This document shows positions 5,967-25,490 of a stretch of 32,000 nt of DNA, in pieces. The notes beneath the pieces were generated by a model that saw only the letters and a program-made list of their open reading frames with translations, had not been told where the DNA came from and did not search any database. Where the stretch lies: the NCBI GenBank assembly GCA_965250005.1, contig OZ252279.1, forward strand, positions 1,860,001-1,892,000. Reading direction: 5' to 3'. Made by a program: the position numbers and the translations under genes. The DNA comes from Demequinaceae bacterium (GTDB taxonomy: Bacteria > Actinomycetota > Actinomycetes > Actinomycetales > Demequinaceae). Positions within the stretch are counted from its first letter, which is position 1. Every line of letters begins with the position of its first letter.

Positions 5967-7052
5967 GTGGCCCTAACTATCGGAATCGTCGGACTACCCA
6001 ATGTTGGTAAGTCCACCTTGTTCAATGCGCTGACGCGCGCGGAGGTGCTCGCGGCGAACTATCCGTTCGCGACTATTGAGCCCAACATCGGTGTGGTTCC
6101 GCTGCCGGATGCCCGCCTAGGCAAGCTCGCCCAGGTCTTCGGGTCAGCGCGCGAGCTTCCGGCCACGGTCTCGTTCGTCGACATCGCAGGCATCGTCAAG
6201 GGCGCGTCCGAGGGCGAGGGGCTGGGCAATGCGTTCCTCGCCAATATTCGCGAAGCCGACGCCATCTGCCAGGTGACGCGAGCGTTCGAGGACCCGGATG
6301 TGACACATGTGGACGGCAAGGTGGACGCGGCGTCGGACATGGAGACCATCTCCACTGAGTTGGGTCTCGCAGACCTGCAGACGCTTGAGAAGGTCATCGC
6401 GCGAGTGGAAAAGGAGGTGCGCATCAAGAAGGCTGAGCCTGGCTACCTGGACGCGTGCGTCAAGGCCAAGGCGATTCTTGAGAGCGGGCAGACTCTCTCC
6501 GCAGGTGCTTCTGCCGCCAAGTTAGACCTCGACGACATCCGCGACCTCTCCCTTCTTACGGCCAAGCCATTCATCTACGTCTTCAATACGGACGACGCGG
6601 GCCTTGCCGACGATGAGGCCAAGGCGGGCCTCGCCGCGCAGGTCGCGCCGTCTGAGGCGATCTTCTTGGACGCCAAGTTTGAGTCGGAGCTGGTTGACCT
6701 GACACCGGACGAGGCCGCTGAGATGCTTGCTGAAAGCGGCCAGGCAGAGTCAGGTCTCGATCAGCTCGCGCGCGTCGGTTTTGAGACGCTGGGCCTGCAG
6801 GCCTACCTGACCGCAGGCCCCAAGGAAGCGCGAGCATGGACCATCCATAAGGGATGGACCGCGCCTCAGGCAGCGGGAGTCATTCACACTGACTTCGAGA
6901 AGGGCTTCATTAAGGCCGAGGTGGTCTCGTTCGATGACCTCATGACTGCGGGCACCATGGCCGAAGCGAAGGCCGCGGGCAAAGTCCGCATGGAGGGCAA
7001 GGACTACGTGATGGCCGACGGCGACGTAGTGGAGTTCCGCTTCAACAACTAG
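5967..7052 (+). CDS. ychF: Ribosome-binding ATPase YchF
   Basis: 361 aa with a GTG start, P-loop GLPNVGKSTLFNALT and a YchF-type C-terminal domain (MEGKDYVMADGDVVEFRFN). Confidence 0.95.
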   Translation: MALTIGIVGLPNVGKSTLFNALTRAEVLAANYPFATIEPNIGVVPLPDARLGKLAQVFGSARELPATVSFVDIAGIVKGASEGEGLGNAFLANIREADAICQVTRAFEDPDVTHVDGKVDAASDMETISTELGLADLQTLEKVIARVEKEVRIKKAEPGYLDACVKAKAILESGQTLSAGASAAKLDLDDIRDLSLLTAKPFIYVFNTDDAGLADDEAKAGLAAQVAPSEAIFLDAKFESELVDLTPDEAAEMLAESGQAESGLDQLARVGFETLGLQAYLTAGPKEARAWTIHKGWTAPQAAGVIHTDFEKGFIKAEVVSFDDLMTAGTMAEAKAAGKVRMEGKDYVMADGDVVEFRFNN

Positions 7053-7196
7053 AACTTCGTCCAAGTTTGCTCCTCAGAGACGGGGGAGATGAGGACGAAC
7101 GAGACTCCATAGCATGTTTTCTAGCCCTTTTGCAGGACCTTAGTCCCTTTTTGGTTGCGAGAAACGAGAACTGGGCGTACTTTTGTGTTAGGAGCG

Positions 7197-7212
7197 TGTG
7201 ACGTTCGTCACA
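7197..7212. promoter_or_regulatory. Perfect CRP/GlxR-type palindrome, site 1
   Basis: TGTGAcgttcgTCACA matches all 10 positions of the TGTGA-N6-TCACA consensus. It lies 95-110 nt upstream of the ATG at 7307. Confidence 0.7.
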
Positions 7213-7219
7213 GGTTTCG

Positions 7220-7235
7220 TGTGATTCACGTCACA
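7220..7235. promoter_or_regulatory. Perfect CRP/GlxR-type palindrome, site 2
   Basis: TGTGAttcacgTCACA is a second perfect TGTGA-N6-TCACA. Its centre is 23 bp from site 1, and it lies 72-87 nt upstream of the ATG at 7307. Confidence 0.7.
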
Positions 7236-7306
7236 CTGCGTGGCCCGCATTTCGCCTTATACGTAGCGAAGGCCACAAAATAACTGGCACGAGGGAGATT
7301 TTCGAT

Positions 7307-8302
7307 ATGACTACTATTCGGGAATATCTTACGAGGGCGAACATCATGGCCCTCGTCGGCATGGTCGCGTTGGCAGTTGTGGCCGTCATGGCCGCCGCCC
7401 CATCGGCATCGGCCACAAGTAGCAGCAACAAGAATGGGACTGAGTACTGGCTCGCTGAGTACCCGGACGCACTGTACTGCTACAAGTACGACCCACCCGA
7501 GACCAGCACAAGCCATGGAGTCCTGTCGAACGGTGGCCTCTCGGTGACGCTCAGCACGTATGGCTCGAGTTGGCCTGGTGACCACTGGGAAGTTCTCATC
7601 GTCAAGGGCGGCAATTCCGGCCTCACAGGTGACGGTAACGCGGTCTACGAGCACCCATCTTCGGGAGTCGCCTACTATCCGCCGCTGAACTCGGGCGGTA
7701 GCGAGCCACTAGTGTCGCACTGGATCGTCTGTAAGGGTGAATACCCGACGCCAACTCCGACGCCAAGTTCGACGCCAACTCCGACGCCAAGTTCGACGCC
7801 AACTCCGACGCCGACGCCTACACCGACGCCTACACCGACGCCTACGCCGACGCCTACACCGACGCCTACACCGACGCCAACTCCGACGCCTACGCCTACG
7901 CCGACGCCTACGCCAACTCCGACGCCTACGCCAACTCCGACGCCGACGCCTACACCGACGCCAAGTTCGACGCCGACGCCGACGCCTACGCCTACGCCGA
8001 CGCCTACGCCTACGCCTACGCCTACGCCTACACCGACGCCTACACCGACGCCAAGTTCGACGCCGACGCCTACGCCGACGCCTACACCGACGCCAAGTTC
8101 GACGCCGACGCCTACGCCTACGCCGACGCCTACGCCGACTGAGACGATCGTTCTTGAAACGTTCGAATCGCCGACGGAAAGCATCCTCGCCGAAACTGGC
8201 GCAAGCGAAGACTGGTCGCGTACGGCTGGACTTGCTATCACGTTGCTTCTTGCTGGACTAGTCCTCATGTGGGCGCGTCCTGCGAACGAGCAGCAGCTGT
8301 AA
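7307..8302 (+). CDS. Cell-wall-anchored surface protein: signal peptide, small Cys-containing head, Thr-Pro stalk, LAETG sorting signal
   Basis: 331 aa. N-terminal hydrophobic signal ([26 protein letters not shown]), a head of about 110 aa, a (TP)n stalk with periodic PSST, then LAETG (8186-8200), the hydrophobic stretch [16 protein letters not shown] and a tail containing Arg. RBS GAGGGAG precedes the ATG. Confidence 0.88.
7745..8140 (+). repeat. Thr-Pro coding microsatellite (6-bp ACN-CCN periodicity, 132 codons)
   Basis: Runs of ccgacgcctaca / ccaactccgacg / ccaagttcgacg units. In frame with the gene it reads [12 protein letters not shown]... Confidence 0.95.
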
Positions 8303-8338
8303 CCGCACAGGTCACATAGAATTCTAGGGAGACGAGCC

Positions 8339-8839
8339 ATGATGTGGAACGGTCTGACAACGCCGGACGGCGGGGCGCGACGCGCCTCGCTGGCCGGGTT
8401 CGGAGCGCTAGCCCTTTCGGCGGCGCTTGCGGTAGTGGTCTCTTCGGGACCCGCCGCAGCTGATACCACAACCTCCGTTGCGAACCTCTCGGTGAGTGCG
8501 TCGGCCTCCATGGCTGACGCACTCCCCGGAGAGTCGCTCATTGTCGCCTTCGACGTGACGAACGACGGAAGTCAGGACGCGGATGGCGTGGCGATCTTTG
8601 CCGCCCTTGACGCGGGCTTGAGTCTCACGAATGCCGGCGCAGTGCCGGTGTCCGTGGATATCTCTGCAGGATCCTCGGTGACTCTCAGTTTCGAACTTGC
8701 CGTTGACCATGTTCTTGATACGGATGTTTCGGAACTGACGGTGGACGTGAGTACGTCCACGGGAGCGTCGGCAACCGTGACAGTTGAGGTCCTCACCCAG
8801 GAACTCGTGTCAATCGTCGGCGAAGAGCCGGCACCCTAG
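8339..8839 (+). CDS. Small secreted protein (DUF11/CARDB-like beta domain), unknown function
   Basis: 166 aa with an Arg-containing n-region, signal peptide (SLAGFGALALSAALAVVVSSGPAAA) and an Ig-like-looking repeat domain (LSVSASASMADALPGESLIVAFDVTNDGSQDADGV...). No anchor motif. Confidence 0.6.
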   Translation: MMWNGLTTPDGGARRASLAGFGALALSAALAVVVSSGPAAADTTTSVANLSVSASASMADALPGESLIVAFDVTNDGSQDADGVAIFAALDAGLSLTNAGAVPVSVDISAGSSVTLSFELAVDHVLDTDVSELTVDVSTSTGASATVTVEVLTQELVSIVGEEPAP

Positions 8840-8857
8840 GTTCGTCGTTTGCGAACC
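8839..8857 (+). terminator. Weak hairpin after the 8339..8839 gene
   Basis: GGTTCG-tcgtttg-CGAACC (6-bp stem) followed by ttcat. There is no clean U-tract. Confidence 0.3.
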
Positions 8858-9015
8858 TTCATGAATTCGCCGATCTCCCTCGGCGATGCGGGGGCTCGGG
8901 TGGCGCAAGCCGCCCGAGCCTTTCCCCCAGGGCAGGTGCGGGGAACACTGTGGAGTGGTAAGGCGTGCGGCAGCAAATGCGGCGGGCACCGGAATCGATG
9001 TGCTGTGGAGAAGCG

Positions 9016-10277
<1,262 letters not shown>

Positions 10278-10306
10278 CAGGAAACGCGTGCGATCCCGCG
10301 AGGGAT

Positions 10307-10361
10307 AGAAGAACCAGGAGGGGGCCCGGACCGGATTGACGGTCGGGGTCCCTGTTCTTCT
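10307..10361 (+). terminator. Long imperfect hairpin after the surface-protein cluster and upstream of typA
   Basis: AGAAGAACcAGG ... CCTGTTCTTCT outer arms enclose an inner GACCG-gattga-CGGTC stem. No U-tract follows, so it may be a terminator-like or processing structure. Confidence 0.4.
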
Positions 10362-10498
10362 GTTCAGAGGGCCCAACGGGAGCCCTTAGGCAAGCCTGAC
10401 GGCGCTATTACGATCCTGGGTAGGCTCACCGGGGTACACTAGGGCGGCCGACTCGCAGACGACCGGCTCCCCCTCATCATTCACGAAGCGAGATTCCT

Positions 10499-12400
10499 AT
10501 GCCCGCGCGCCAAGATTTGCGCAATGTTGCCATCGTCGCCCACGTCGATCACGGTAAGACCACGCTCGTCGATGCGATGTTGGTGCAGGGGGGTGCCTAC
10601 GGCGACCATGCACACGTGGAAGATCGCGCAATGGACTCGGGAGACCTCGAACGCGAAAAGGGAATCACGATTCTCGCCAAGAACACCGCCATCCGATATA
10701 CCGGCGCGTCGGCGGTGGACGGCGGCGTGACGATTAACGTCATCGATACGCCCGGGCACGCTGACTTTGGAGGAGAGGTCGAGCGTGGGCTGTCCATGGT
10801 CGACGGCGTCGTACTGCTGGTCGATGCGTCGGAGGGTCCGCTTCCTCAAACTCGCTTCGTGCTGCGCAAGGCGCTGGCCGCTCACCTACCTGTGATCATC
10901 GTTGTCAACAAGGTTGACCGCCCGGATTCGCGAATTGGTGCCGTGGTCGAAGAAACCCACGACCTACTGCTTGGCCTCGCGTCCGACCTGGAGGACGAAG
11001 TCCCCGATCTCGACATCGACGCACTCCTCGCGGTCCCGGTGGTCTTTGCCTCTGCGAAGGCCGGCCGAGCTTCGCTCAACCAGCCCGGTGACGGTGAGTT
11101 GCCGGATGCGGAGAACTTGGAGCCCCTTTTCCGCGTGATCATGGAGCGGATTCCCGCGCCCACATACGACGACGACGCGCCGCTGCAGGCGCATGTCACC
11201 AACCTCGACGCCTCGCCCTTCCTTGGACGACTGGCGCTACTACGTGTCTTCAACGGCACAATTAGGAAGGGCCAGATCGTTGCGTGGGCCAAGGCCGACG
11301 GCACCATCGCGAACGTCAAGATCACCGAACTTCTCGAAACCAAGGGCCTCGACCGGGTGCCGACACAGAGCGCCGGCCCCGGCGATATTGTGGCGGTCGC
11401 GGGCATCGAGGGCATTACGATAGGCGAAACTCTCACTGACGTGGACGACCCTCGTCCGTTGCCATTGATCGTGATCGACGATCCTGCGATTTCGATGACA
11501 ATCGGCATCAATACATCCCCGCTCGCTGGACGTGTCAAGGGCGCCAAAGTTACGGCCAGACAGGTGAAAGACCGCCTCGACAAGGAACTGGTGGGTAACG
11601 TCTCGATTCGCGTTCTTCCCACGGAACGCCCCGATTCGTGGGAGGTTCAAGGTCGCGGCGAATTGGCGCTAGCCATCCTCGTCGAGCAGATGCGCCGTGA
11701 GGGCTTCGAGTTGACTGTCGGCAAGCCACAGGTTGTCACCAAAGAGATCGACGGCAAGCGCCACGAGCCCATGGAGCATATGACGATTGATGTCCCCGAG
11801 GAGCACCTCGGCGCCGTCACCCAGCTCATGGCAACCCGCAAGGGCCGGATGGAAAGCATGTCGAATCACGGCACGGGGTGGGTCCGAATGGAGTTCATCA
11901 TCCCCGCCCGCGGCCTCATCGGCTTCCGGACGCTCTTTCTGACCGATACGCGCGGCACCGGAATCGCGTCGTCAATCGCGCATGGCTATGAGCCGTGGGC
12001 CGGGCCCATCGAACTGAGGACTACTGGCTCATTGGTCGCGGACCGCTCGGGCCCAGTCACGCCGTTTGCGATGATCAACCTGCAGGAGCGCGGGTCCTTC
12101 TTCGTCAAGCCGACCGCCGAAGTCTACGAGGGCATGATCGTTGGCGAGAACTCGCGCAATGAGGACATGGACGTCAACATCACCAAAGAAAAGAAGCTTA
12201 CCAATATGCGTGCTGCTTCGAGCGACTCGTTCGAGAACCTCACTCCGCCGCGCGAACTCACGCTCGAAGAGTGCCTGGAATTCGCTCGCGACGACGAGTG
12301 TGTTGAAGTCACTCCAGATCACACACGCATCCGCAAGGTGGTCCTCGATCAGCTTGAGCGTGGACGCACGACGGCGCGCGCCAAGCGTGCGGAGAAATAG
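10499..12400 (+). CDS. typA: Translational GTPase TypA/BipA
   Basis: 633 aa with [33 protein letters not shown] and NKVDR GTPase motifs and a BipA-type C-terminus. Confidence 0.96.
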
Positions 12401-23736: not shown

Positions 23737-23944
23737 CCTTGTCTCTGATCGCATCGTATCTCTGTGGACGTGGGCGGAAGCGCGGCTTAACGGGTGCGGC
23801 GCCCATGCTTGGCTATACCCCTATAGGTATGCAAAACGGCCTAAACTGCTTTCGATGGGGGTGTTCTGCGCTAAATGTTGCGGGGTTTCTTGGGACCCGT
23901 TAGGTTGCAGATTACACAGATCACTTTTTGAGGGAACTGGGTTG
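23737..23944 (+). repeat. 208-bp direct repeat, copy 1 (flanks the IS)
   Basis: Identical to 25283..25490 except for one position (T at 23850 vs C at 25396). It begins inside the O-methyltransferase Shine-Dalgarno region. Confidence 0.95.
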
Positions 23945-23995
23945 GAGCCAACCCCGCTTTCCCGGACACGGGGTGTGTGTATCGCCCCGGGTTTG

Positions 23996-24913
23996 TTAGA
24001 GACTCGTGAATGCCCGCTCCGGGTTCGGCGCGGGGTTGTTCTGTGAAGCGTAGTGGGCTTGCTCGTATTCGACTGGTGGGACGTGTCCAATCTCGCCGTG
24101 GAGGCGTCGGTGGTTGAACCAGTCGATATATTCGACGACCGCGATCTCGAGGTCGGTGATGGATCTCCAGGGCCCCCGGTTTCGGACCAGCTCGGCTTTG
24201 AATAGCGAGTTGAAGGCTTCCGCGAGGGCGTTGTCGTAGGAGTCGCCGCGGGAACCGACGGAAGCGACGACGCCGGCCTCGCAGAGGCGTTGCGTGTAGC
24301 GGATAGCTCGATATTGAACGCCCCTGTCACTGTGATGAATCAGAGCAGTCACGTCTCGCCCGTCACGATGCCGCGACCACAATCCCATTTCCAGGGCATC
24401 CAAAGCCAGGTCGGTGCGTAGCGACGTCGATAGTTGCTAGCCGACGACCCGTCGGGAGCACACATCGATCACGAACGCTGCGTAAGCCCAGCCACTGAAG
24501 GTGCGAATGTAGGTGATGTCCGCGACCCACAACTGGTCAGGACGTTCGGCCCTGAACTGGCGATCCACGAGGTCCAAGGGACGTTCCGTTTCGCCCCCAG
24601 GGATCGTCGTGCGAGGAGACTTCACCCGGGCAATGCCTCGTAAACCCTCCCGACGCATGAGACGTTCTACGGTGCACCGAGCAACCCGGTGACCTCGCCG
24701 AACCAGTTCACCATGGACTTTCCGTACCCCATAGACACCGTAGTTCTCGGCATGGATTTCACGGATCAAGACGAGAAGACCCGCGTCCCGGACGGCTCTG
24801 ACCGACGGCGGCCGCGACCGGGCCGCATAGTACGTCGCTGGGGCGATCGGCAACTGTGCGCAGATCGGCTCGACCCCGAAGACATCCTTGTTCTCGTCAA
24901 TGTAGGTGATCAT
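23996..24913 (-). pseudogene. IS3 transposase orfB (rve/DDE integrase core) interrupted by an in-frame amber codon
   Basis: ORFs 24437..24913 and 23996..24403 are one reading frame: ...VIDVCSRRVVG-TAG-QLSTSLRTDLALDALEMGLW...HSDRGVQY...DNALAEAFN. The TAG at 24437-24439 replaces the Trp of the conserved VVGW motif and lies between the first and second catalytic Asp. Confidence 0.85.
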
Positions 24914-25230
24914 CGTGTCGGTGGGCGGTCGAGCTCCGCCGCGAAGAAAGCCGAAGCACTCTTCAAGATCGCATTCGCTCGACGTAGCTCTCGAACCTCA
25001 CGCTCCAACACCGCGATCCTCGACGCATCATCGGTCGTGGTCCCCGGACGATGCCCCCCATCCACCTCCGCGCGCCTCACCCACGTCCGCAACGACTCCC
25101 GATGGATCCCCAACTGGTCAGCAATCCTCGCCATCGACCCCCGGCTCGTCGCCGGGTCCCGTCTCGCATCAAGCGCCAACCGTGTCGCCCGCTCCCTAAG
25201 TTCCGGCGAATACTTCCTCGGTGCTCCCAT
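24910..25230 (-). CDS. IS3 transposase orfA (HTH and leucine zipper)
   Basis: MGAPRKYSPELRERATRLALDARRD...IADQLGIHRESLRTWVRRAE...LEREVRELRRANAILKSASAFFAAELDRP. The RBS is GGAAGGA. orfB starts in the -1 frame across the orfA stop (ATGA). Confidence 0.85.
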   Translation of the reverse strand: MGAPRKYSPELRERATRLALDARRDPATSRGSMARIADQLGIHRESLRTWVRRAEVDGGHRPGTTTDDASRIAVLEREVRELRRANAILKSASAFFAAELDRPPTR

Positions 25231-25282
25231 AGTCCTCATCCTTCCCTGCAATGAAAGTCTCCGCCAAACCCGGGGCGATACA

Positions 25283-25490
25283 CCTTGTCTCTGATCGCAT
25301 CGTATCTCTGTGGACGTGGGCGGAAGCGCGGCTTAACGGGTGCGGCGCCCATGCTTGGCTATACCCCTATAGGTATGCAAAACGGCCTAAACTGCCTTCG
25401 ATGGGGGTGTTCTGCGCTAAATGTTGCGGGGTTTCTTGGGACCCGTTAGGTTGCAGATTACACAGATCACTTTTTGAGGGAACTGGGTTG
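25283..25490 (+). repeat. 208-bp direct repeat, copy 2 (abuts the IS right end)
   Basis: See copy 1. It starts at the first base after the IS terminal CA and ends 36 nt before the GTG at 25526. Confidence 0.95.

Follow-up and report, generated by a model that had tools for sequence, protein, structure and literature searches.

Two perfect TGTGA-N6-TCACA palindromes lie end to end upstream of a gene for an LAETG surface protein, and they are best read from their sequence as two abutting high-affinity operators for a regulator of the Crp/GlxR family. Binding by a protein of this family, with either sign of regulation, is probable. Our preferred reading, to which we assign a probability of roughly 0.45, is that Crp/GlxR dimers occupy both palindromes and that the operon downstream is most likely repressed; it is more likely that the operators switch this operon off than that they switch it on.

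Two perfect CRP/GlxR-type palindromes in the spacer downstream of ychF

The window analysed here is a stretch of 32,000 nt, to which all coordinates refer unless a locus is named (Table 1). A pattern scan found TGTGA-N6-TCACA without mismatch at two places in the window, 7197-7212 and 7220-7235, with centres at 7204.5 and 7227.5. The sites are thus 23 bp apart centre to centre, in agreement with the initial annotation. Read directly, the sequence of 7194-7240 is gcgTGTGAcgttcgTCACAggtttcgTGTGAttcacgTCACActgcg. Both operators match all ten specified bases of the CRP, Rv3676 and GlxR consensus, and all four half-sites read (G/C)TGTGA(C/T). They are located in the non-coding spacer between ychF and gene 1 (7053-7306, 254 bp), 72 and 110 nt upstream of the gene 1 ATG at 7307, the same distances as had been given. 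Position and translation agree that the sites are intergenic and correctly oriented 5' of the surface-protein gene. The spacer had been described as unusually A+T-rich, and its G+C content is indeed 50.4%, compared to 61.6% for the whole window.

The pair had also been judged very unlikely to occur by chance, and this was borne out by several estimates. Shuffled versions of the window that preserved dinucleotide composition contained a mean of 0.07 perfect sites and a maximum of one, and none of the 100 shuffles contained two or more. Base composition predicts 0.014 perfect sites in 32 kb and 1.35 in 3 Mb; for two such sites no more than 30 bp apart, the expectation is 3.7e-5 pairs per 3 Mb. 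As an empirical background we used 80 ychF loci from related Actinomycetota (951 kb in total), in which there were 13 sites with one mismatch and no perfect site. When up to two mismatches were allowed, the window contained 10 matches against 10.7 expected, so only the tandem pair stands out and the window is otherwise at background level. A short direct repeat that had been reported in the same spacer is present, as TAGCCCTTTT (7122-7131) and TAGTCCCTTTTT (7141-7152). It is short and probably meaningless, a product of chance or part of a T-rich promoter-proximal tract.

Table 1. Coordinates of genes and of known or candidate regulatory features around the two operators.
Feature	Coordinates	Strand	Details
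ychF (ribosome-binding ATPase)	5967-7052	+	Pfam YchF-GTPase_C (5e-39) and MMR_HSR1 (8e-22)
Hairpin	7057-7098	+	-19.1 kcal/mol; directly after the ychF stop codon, without a T-run (RNA folding; not flagged by the terminator scan)
Candidate sigma-A-type promoter	7155-7183	+	TTGCGA (7155-7160)-N17-TACTTT (7178-7183)
Operator 1	7197-7212	.	TGTGAcgttcgTCACA; perfect CRP/GlxR-type palindrome, in fact a 7+7 palindrome (TGTGACG-TT-CGTCACA)
Operator 2	7220-7235	.	TGTGAttcacgTCACA; perfect CRP/GlxR-type palindrome, 7-nt gap after operator 1
Imperfect inverted repeat	7240-7276	+	GTGGCC..TTCGC-N10-GCGAA-GGCCAC; -13.4 kcal/mol as RNA; between the operators and the Shine-Dalgarno
Shine-Dalgarno	7293-7298	+	GGGAGA; 8 nt 5' of the ATG at 7307
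Gene 1	7307-8302	+	signal peptide, conserved domain of about 110 aa, long TP repeat, LAETG sorting signal with hydrophobic and basic tail
Gene 2 (secreted DUF11/CARDB-like protein)	8339-8839	+	Pfam DUF11 (1.8e-5); starts 37 nt after gene 1
Terminator-like hairpin	8893-8920	+	12-bp stem, GCAA loop, -27.5 kcal/mol, then TTTCC; not flagged by the T-run-based scan

The operators precede a probable two-gene operon for exported proteins

The closest relatives of the YchF protein are from Demequina (83-84% identity to Demequina mangrovi and a related MAG), on which basis we regard the organism as Demequinaceae-like, within Micrococcales (Actinomycetota). The 3' end of ychF faces the operators, so ychF is not the regulated gene. 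The hairpin that follows its stop codon may be a weak terminator or may stabilise the ychF mRNA.

Gene 1, on the other side of the spacer, had been called a surface protein of the LAETG sortase-anchored type, and the translation confirms the sorting signal and its tail: the C-terminus carries LAETG followed by a hydrophobic stretch and then a basic residue. LAXTG is the signal of class E sortases in Actinobacteria (PMC5148588), and gene 1 has the defining features of a class E sortase substrate, namely an N-terminal signal peptide and a C-terminal LAXTG motif with hydrophobic segment and basic tail. Within the 32-kb window we saw no sortase gene. Gene 1 has no match in Pfam. Its N-terminal domain (within 7307-7750) contains two invariant cysteines (C58 and C142) and the motifs WPGDHWE and VSHWIVCKG, and an AF2 model of the domain (pLDDT 79) consists mostly of beta strands (six). 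Comparison of the predicted structure with PDB folds yielded no significant match. No terminator was found between gene 1 and gene 2, which are probably co-transcribed as a two-gene operon (7307-8839), and the hairpin downstream of gene 2 is likely the end of that operon.

A third surface-protein gene, which looks frameshifted, lies at 9016-10277. The open reading frame at 9016 encodes a signal peptide and a different N-terminal domain, then continues in an Arg-rich nonsense frame until 10239. The other frame (9417-10277) encodes a TP repeat and a LAETG sorting signal nearly identical to that of gene 1. This reflects a pseudogene, an error in sequencing or a repeat junction prone to slippage. 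It is followed by typA/bipA, identified by Pfam, at 10499. Elsewhere in the window, an IS3-family element occupies part of 23737-25490, with an HTH_21/rve transposase fragment at 24437-24913 (minus strand) and an ALIL frameshift pseudoknot at 24839-24952 (minus strand, 79.9 bits). It is flanked by 208-bp direct repeats that are 100% identical (23737-23944 and 25283-25490) and far longer than a normal target-site duplication.

The surface-protein cluster between ychF and typA (7053-10498) is absent 3' of ychF in D. mangrovi and the related MAG (L001 and L002), both of which carry different genes there, and it looks like a lineage-specific insertion. Homologues of the gene 1 N-terminal domain are few, with seven among 5.8e9 clustered proteins and none above 55% identity (the closest at 53-55% or less). 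All seven share the same architecture of signal peptide, domain, T/P/S-rich linker and LPXTG-like signal. Several are encoded on phage-like contigs, one of which is 58,463 bp long and present in 36 samples, and another homologue adjoins SNF2, PDDEXK and AAA_24 genes. Three homologues are on IMG/VR contigs (loci L081-L084 and L208-L210 were examined for the domain), and a tblastn search of GenBank phages with the domain gave no match. Allowing up to two mismatches, we found no CRP-type site in the promoter regions of five homologues: two on phage-like contigs (L081 and L084), two located 3' of tig-clpP-clpX (L085 and L206) and one with only 83 nt of upstream sequence (L207). As far as these sequences can be compared, the operators are specific to the present locus among the homologue loci.

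Candidate promoters and the sign of regulation

On the plus strand of the spacer there are two TANNNT hexamers, TAGCAT at 7110, which has no -35 element, and TACTTT at 7178, which is preceded at a spacing of 17 bp by TTGCGA, a 4/6 match to the -35. TTGCGA-N17-TACTTT is the sole -35/-10 pair in the spacer and lies 5' of both operators. Its -10 is weak (3/6 to TATAAT), and it scores below a stricter E. coli-type promoter scan, which found nothing. Transcription from this pair is predicted from the sequence to start at about 7189-7191. Downstream, between the operators and the ATG, there is no TANNNT -10; the hexamer TATACG (7258-7263) matches TATAAT at four of six positions and lacks the T at -7. 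The imperfect inverted repeat that follows the operators could form a 5' leader hairpin or could be a further operator, the site of a second regulator.

According to our preferred reading, each 16-bp site would bind one dimer of a regulator of the Crp/GlxR family (CRP-FNR superfamily), which in Actinomycetota is the global cAMP-responsive factor, and the target would be the operon of gene 1 and gene 2, which encodes an LAETG wall-anchored protein and a secreted DUF11 protein. The footprints of such dimers, about 22 bp each, touch at a spacing of 23 bp, so both sites probably become occupied at once, and binding at one may favour binding at the other. If transcription starts near 7190 from the promoter at 7155-7183, the dimers would lie at about +15 and +38. 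Such positions are those of a repressor or roadblock, and from there the dimers would block promoter escape or elongation. ChIP-seq of M. tuberculosis CRP showed that binding near the transcription start accompanies repression (PMC4117774). If the promoter instead lies 3' of this, the abutting dimers would be centred at -64.5 and -41.5 and would exclude the alpha-CTD, as happens at whiB1. A negative effect would be expected under either promoter model, because perfect sites should fill together and because of the whiB1 precedent.

The one well-studied case of abutting sites in actinobacteria is the whiB1 promoter of M. tuberculosis, which has two sites for CRP(Mt), CRP1 (-58.5) and CRP2 (-37.5), 21 bp apart (Stapleton et al. 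2010, PMC2844151). As here, an actinobacterial promoter carries two adjacent Crp sites on roughly the same face of the helix. Occupancy of one whiB1 site helps occupancy of the other, and when both are filled the alpha-CTD is excluded and transcription is repressed (PMC2844151). At whiB1 neither site is perfect (7/8 and 6/8 of a looser consensus), the affinities differ and the spacing is 21 bp, whereas both sites are perfect and spaced by 23 bp at the present locus. The targets differ too, a Wbl regulator in one case and a surface-protein operon in the other. At whiB1, low levels of Crp-cAMP activate and high levels repress (PMC2844151); such a two-step response would not be expected here since both sites are perfect.

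A counterpoint to repression is that the promoter call leans on a weak -10, while TATACG would set operator 2 at about -41.5, the textbook class II activating position. The same Crp/GlxR regulator could then activate the operon from operator 2, with TATACG as the -10 and a start at about 7269-7270, and operator 1 at -64.5 would modulate activation or add cooperative occupancy. Promoters that depend on an activator often match the consensus poorly, which counts in favour of this model, as do the exact distance (7227.5 is -41.5 from 7269) and the 4/6 match of TATACG to TATAAT. The upstream Crp site at whiB1 is, moreover, an activating one. However, the T that is almost invariant at -7 is missing from TATACG, and no TANNNT occurs 3' of the sites. 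A centre at -64.5 misses the class I face by 3 bp, and the abutting dimers leave no room for the alpha-CTD, the arrangement whose equivalent at whiB1 represses. Both sites are equally perfect, so that graded occupancy is not expected. We consider activation possible but doubtful, and less likely than repression.

The same geometry tells against a combined class I plus class II activator arrangement, which had been raised as a possibility for these sites. Placing operator 2 at -41.5 puts operator 1 at -64.5, 3 bp away from the class I face, with abutting sites, no space for the alpha-CTD and no TANNNT downstream. The class III promoters of E. coli resemble the locus in having two CRP dimers 5' of a single promoter, provided that transcription does start from the downstream promoter. 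In class III promoters the alpha-CTD must find room between the dimers or next to them, and the sites must be in helical phase, at -61.5, -71.5 and further such positions (PMC2844151). The definition of a class III promoter (a site at about -41.5, a partner phased at -61.5, -71.5 and so forth, and room for the alpha-CTD) does not describe the abutting sites at -64.5 and -41.5. What remains of the proposal of cAMP/CRP-family control of the surface-protein gene is the reading of the sites as CRP-type operators, for which consensus match, rarity and intergenic position speak, without the activator geometry.

Which protein would bind the operators

TGTGA-N6-TCACA is the consensus of E. coli CRP, and Rv3676 and GlxR bind it as well, by means of a conserved recognition helix (PMC10187061; PMC5449483). 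[quoted passage not shown] In Corynebacterium glutamicum, another high-G+C Gram-positive bacterium, GlxR recognises the same 16-bp palindrome (PMC10187061). The C. glutamicum regulon, which has carbon and energy metabolism at its centre, comprises more than 200 target genes, and its sites are typically single and imperfect, in contrast to the paired and perfect sites upstream of gene 1. The actinobacterial family of Crp-like proteins is very large: at least 7,978 clusters match Rv3676 at E<=1e-30. Among the matches listed in that search (the best 120 of at least 7,978), only Mycobacteriales-like proteins appeared. A tblastn search found no Crp/GlxR gene in the 32-kb window or in the loci that we fetched, and we infer the presence of such a regulator, which would combine a cNMP-binding domain with an HTH that has the R-E-x-x-x-R helix, from the affiliation of the organism with Actinomycetota and Micrococcales. 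In the literature we found no example of a sortase substrate or surface protein controlled by Crp, and nothing relevant on Demequina and Crp.

The palindromes might instead bind another dimeric helix-turn-helix protein, either a further CRP/FNR-family paralogue or a repressor acquired together with the surface-protein cassette by horizontal transfer. The genes of the ychF-typA interval are absent 3' of ychF in Demequina relatives and the spacer is low in G+C, as would suit an acquired cassette; homologues of gene 1 are found on phage-like contigs, and tandem perfect sites also occur in viral contigs. On the other hand, no regulator gene adjoins the operon and there are no phage genes nearby, and a perfect match to the consensus of a global regulator is more economically explained by that regulator. 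We regard a different helix-turn-helix protein as unlikely.

Rex, a further candidate that the initial annotation had not considered, senses NADH/NAD+ and would keep the operon repressed from both sites until the cell is reduced. The Rex operator (Streptomyces ROP), TTGTGAA-N4-TTCACAA, shares its ten core bases and their spacing with the present sites (PMC5355995): its consensus, TGTGAACNNNTTCACA / TTGTGAANNNNTTCACAA, has a TGTGA-N6-TCACA core. In Streptomyces and Firmicutes, Rex also acts from sites that overlap promoters or lie 3' of them (PMC5355995), as the operators here would under the upstream promoter. The flanks argue against Rex. While the core matches at 10/10 positions, the Rex-specific flank positions match at 0/8, the half-sites being (G/C)TGTGA(C/T) and not TTGTGAA, and the T/A flanks of Rex operators are missing from all four. 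The gene class differs as well, since known Rex targets are respiratory and fermentation genes and not surface proteins, and the few Rex-flanked tandem pairs in metagenomes are spaced by 5 or 9 nt among the matches listed. Control by Rex appears quite improbable.

A role at the RNA level is very unlikely. The palindromes would in that case serve as hairpins that end or stabilise the ychF transcript, or that structure the leader of gene 1, and not as protein operators. In favour of such a role, the terminator scan picked out operator 1, the two sites can pair as a 41-nt hairpin (-21.2 kcal/mol), and the leader (7185-7310) folds with a z-score of -3.1. Any pair of palindromes folds in this way, however, and the stems taken singly have little stability (-6.4 and -4.2 kcal/mol) and no proper U-tract. 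Structure alone would not need the exact CRP half-site letters that are present in all four arms, and the spacer has no Rfam match at gathering thresholds, nor at E<=1 over 7000-7400. Operator 1 was also considered as an intrinsic terminator and rejected: it has a 6-bp stem and a weak T-run, and was detected by a permissive scan only, which found one terminator where 0.5 was expected.

A pair that arose by chance, or was copied as part of a dispersed repeat element, is negligible as an explanation given the expected number of pairs (3.7e-5 per 3 Mb), the uniqueness of the pair in the window, its absence from 951 kb of related DNA and the absence of the exact sequence from more than 160 tandem matches in metagenomes and viral contigs.

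Tandem CRP-type pairs in metagenomes and viral contigs

In JGI metagenomes, a scan for perfect sites paired at a gap of 4-10 nt gave at least 120 stretches (L086-L205). After retaining pairs with differing inner hexamers and one pair per locus, 81 pairs remained among the matches listed, some of them from related families. Gaps of 6 and 7 nt accounted for 18 and 28 of these 81 pairs, respectively, a distribution that departs from uniform (chi-square p = 1.3e-6), and the preference is carried by pairs that lack Rex-type flanks, of which 38 of 60 among the matches listed had a gap of 6 or 7 nt. A spacing of 22-23 bp, at which 22-bp footprints touch, thus seems to be favoured for CRP-type pairs, and the present locus conforms to it. 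In IMG/VR, gaps of 6 or 7 nt were present in 43 matches, and in 35 of them the gap was 7 nt; these come mostly from one conserved low-G+C phage family, so this preference is not independent support.

That family comprises around two dozen viral contigs of 36-40% G+C (within L212-L251) that share the element gagcgtgggc..TGTGATAAGCATCACA-N7-TGTGATAAACATCACA..aaatgtccga. The element, for example at 6798-6836 of L212, is a tandem CRP-type pair with 23-bp spacing located among small ORFs, and it may tap a CRP-family regulator of the host. A different viral contig (L235, 64% G+C) has a tandem perfect pair with a 7-nt gap at 7744-7782, in a divergent intergenic region between a large gene of 538 aa, terminase-like as judged by sequence alone, and a gene on the minus strand. 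On a metagenome contig of 67% G+C (L158), a tandem perfect pair with a 6-nt gap (2050-2087) stands 7 nt away from the start of a divergent gene for a CRP/FNR-family regulator, which suggests autoregulation via a double site. Finally, L141 has tandem perfect Rex-type operators, TTGTGAAAACTTTCACAA / TTGTGAAAAATTTCACAA, 23 bp apart at 10179-10217 and 5' of a gene with N- and C-terminal CxxCH haem-binding motifs; the core pattern used in the scan therefore captures Rex sites too.

Implications for surface display in Demequinaceae

In sequence, the sites themselves are textbook CRP/GlxR operators, and the tandem pair at whiB1 is their closest precedent. It is mildly unusual that both are perfect and abutting, and that their target belongs to a rare sortase-anchored family that is also found on phage-like contigs. 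A broader proposal would be that abutting perfect pairs at 22-23 bp represent a distinct and widespread 'double-clamp', an all-or-none, cAMP-dependent off-switch of bacteria and some phages, which here gates the display of a rare, phage-associated, wall-anchored family encoded on a horizontally acquired cassette. We consider this generalisation speculative and rather unlikely.

The prediction is credible yet ordinary as regulatory predictions go, and it does not overturn current understanding. If it is true, an operon for cell-surface display would join the Crp/GlxR regulon of the Demequinaceae, a little-studied family of marine and soil bacteria. The locus would be a clean natural case of two abutting Crp operators of equal and maximal affinity, complementing the unequal pair at whiB1, and such an equal pair would help to test how the filling of both sites decides between activation and repression. 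Control through cAMP would also suggest conditions under which the very small and uncharacterised gene 1 family could be studied.
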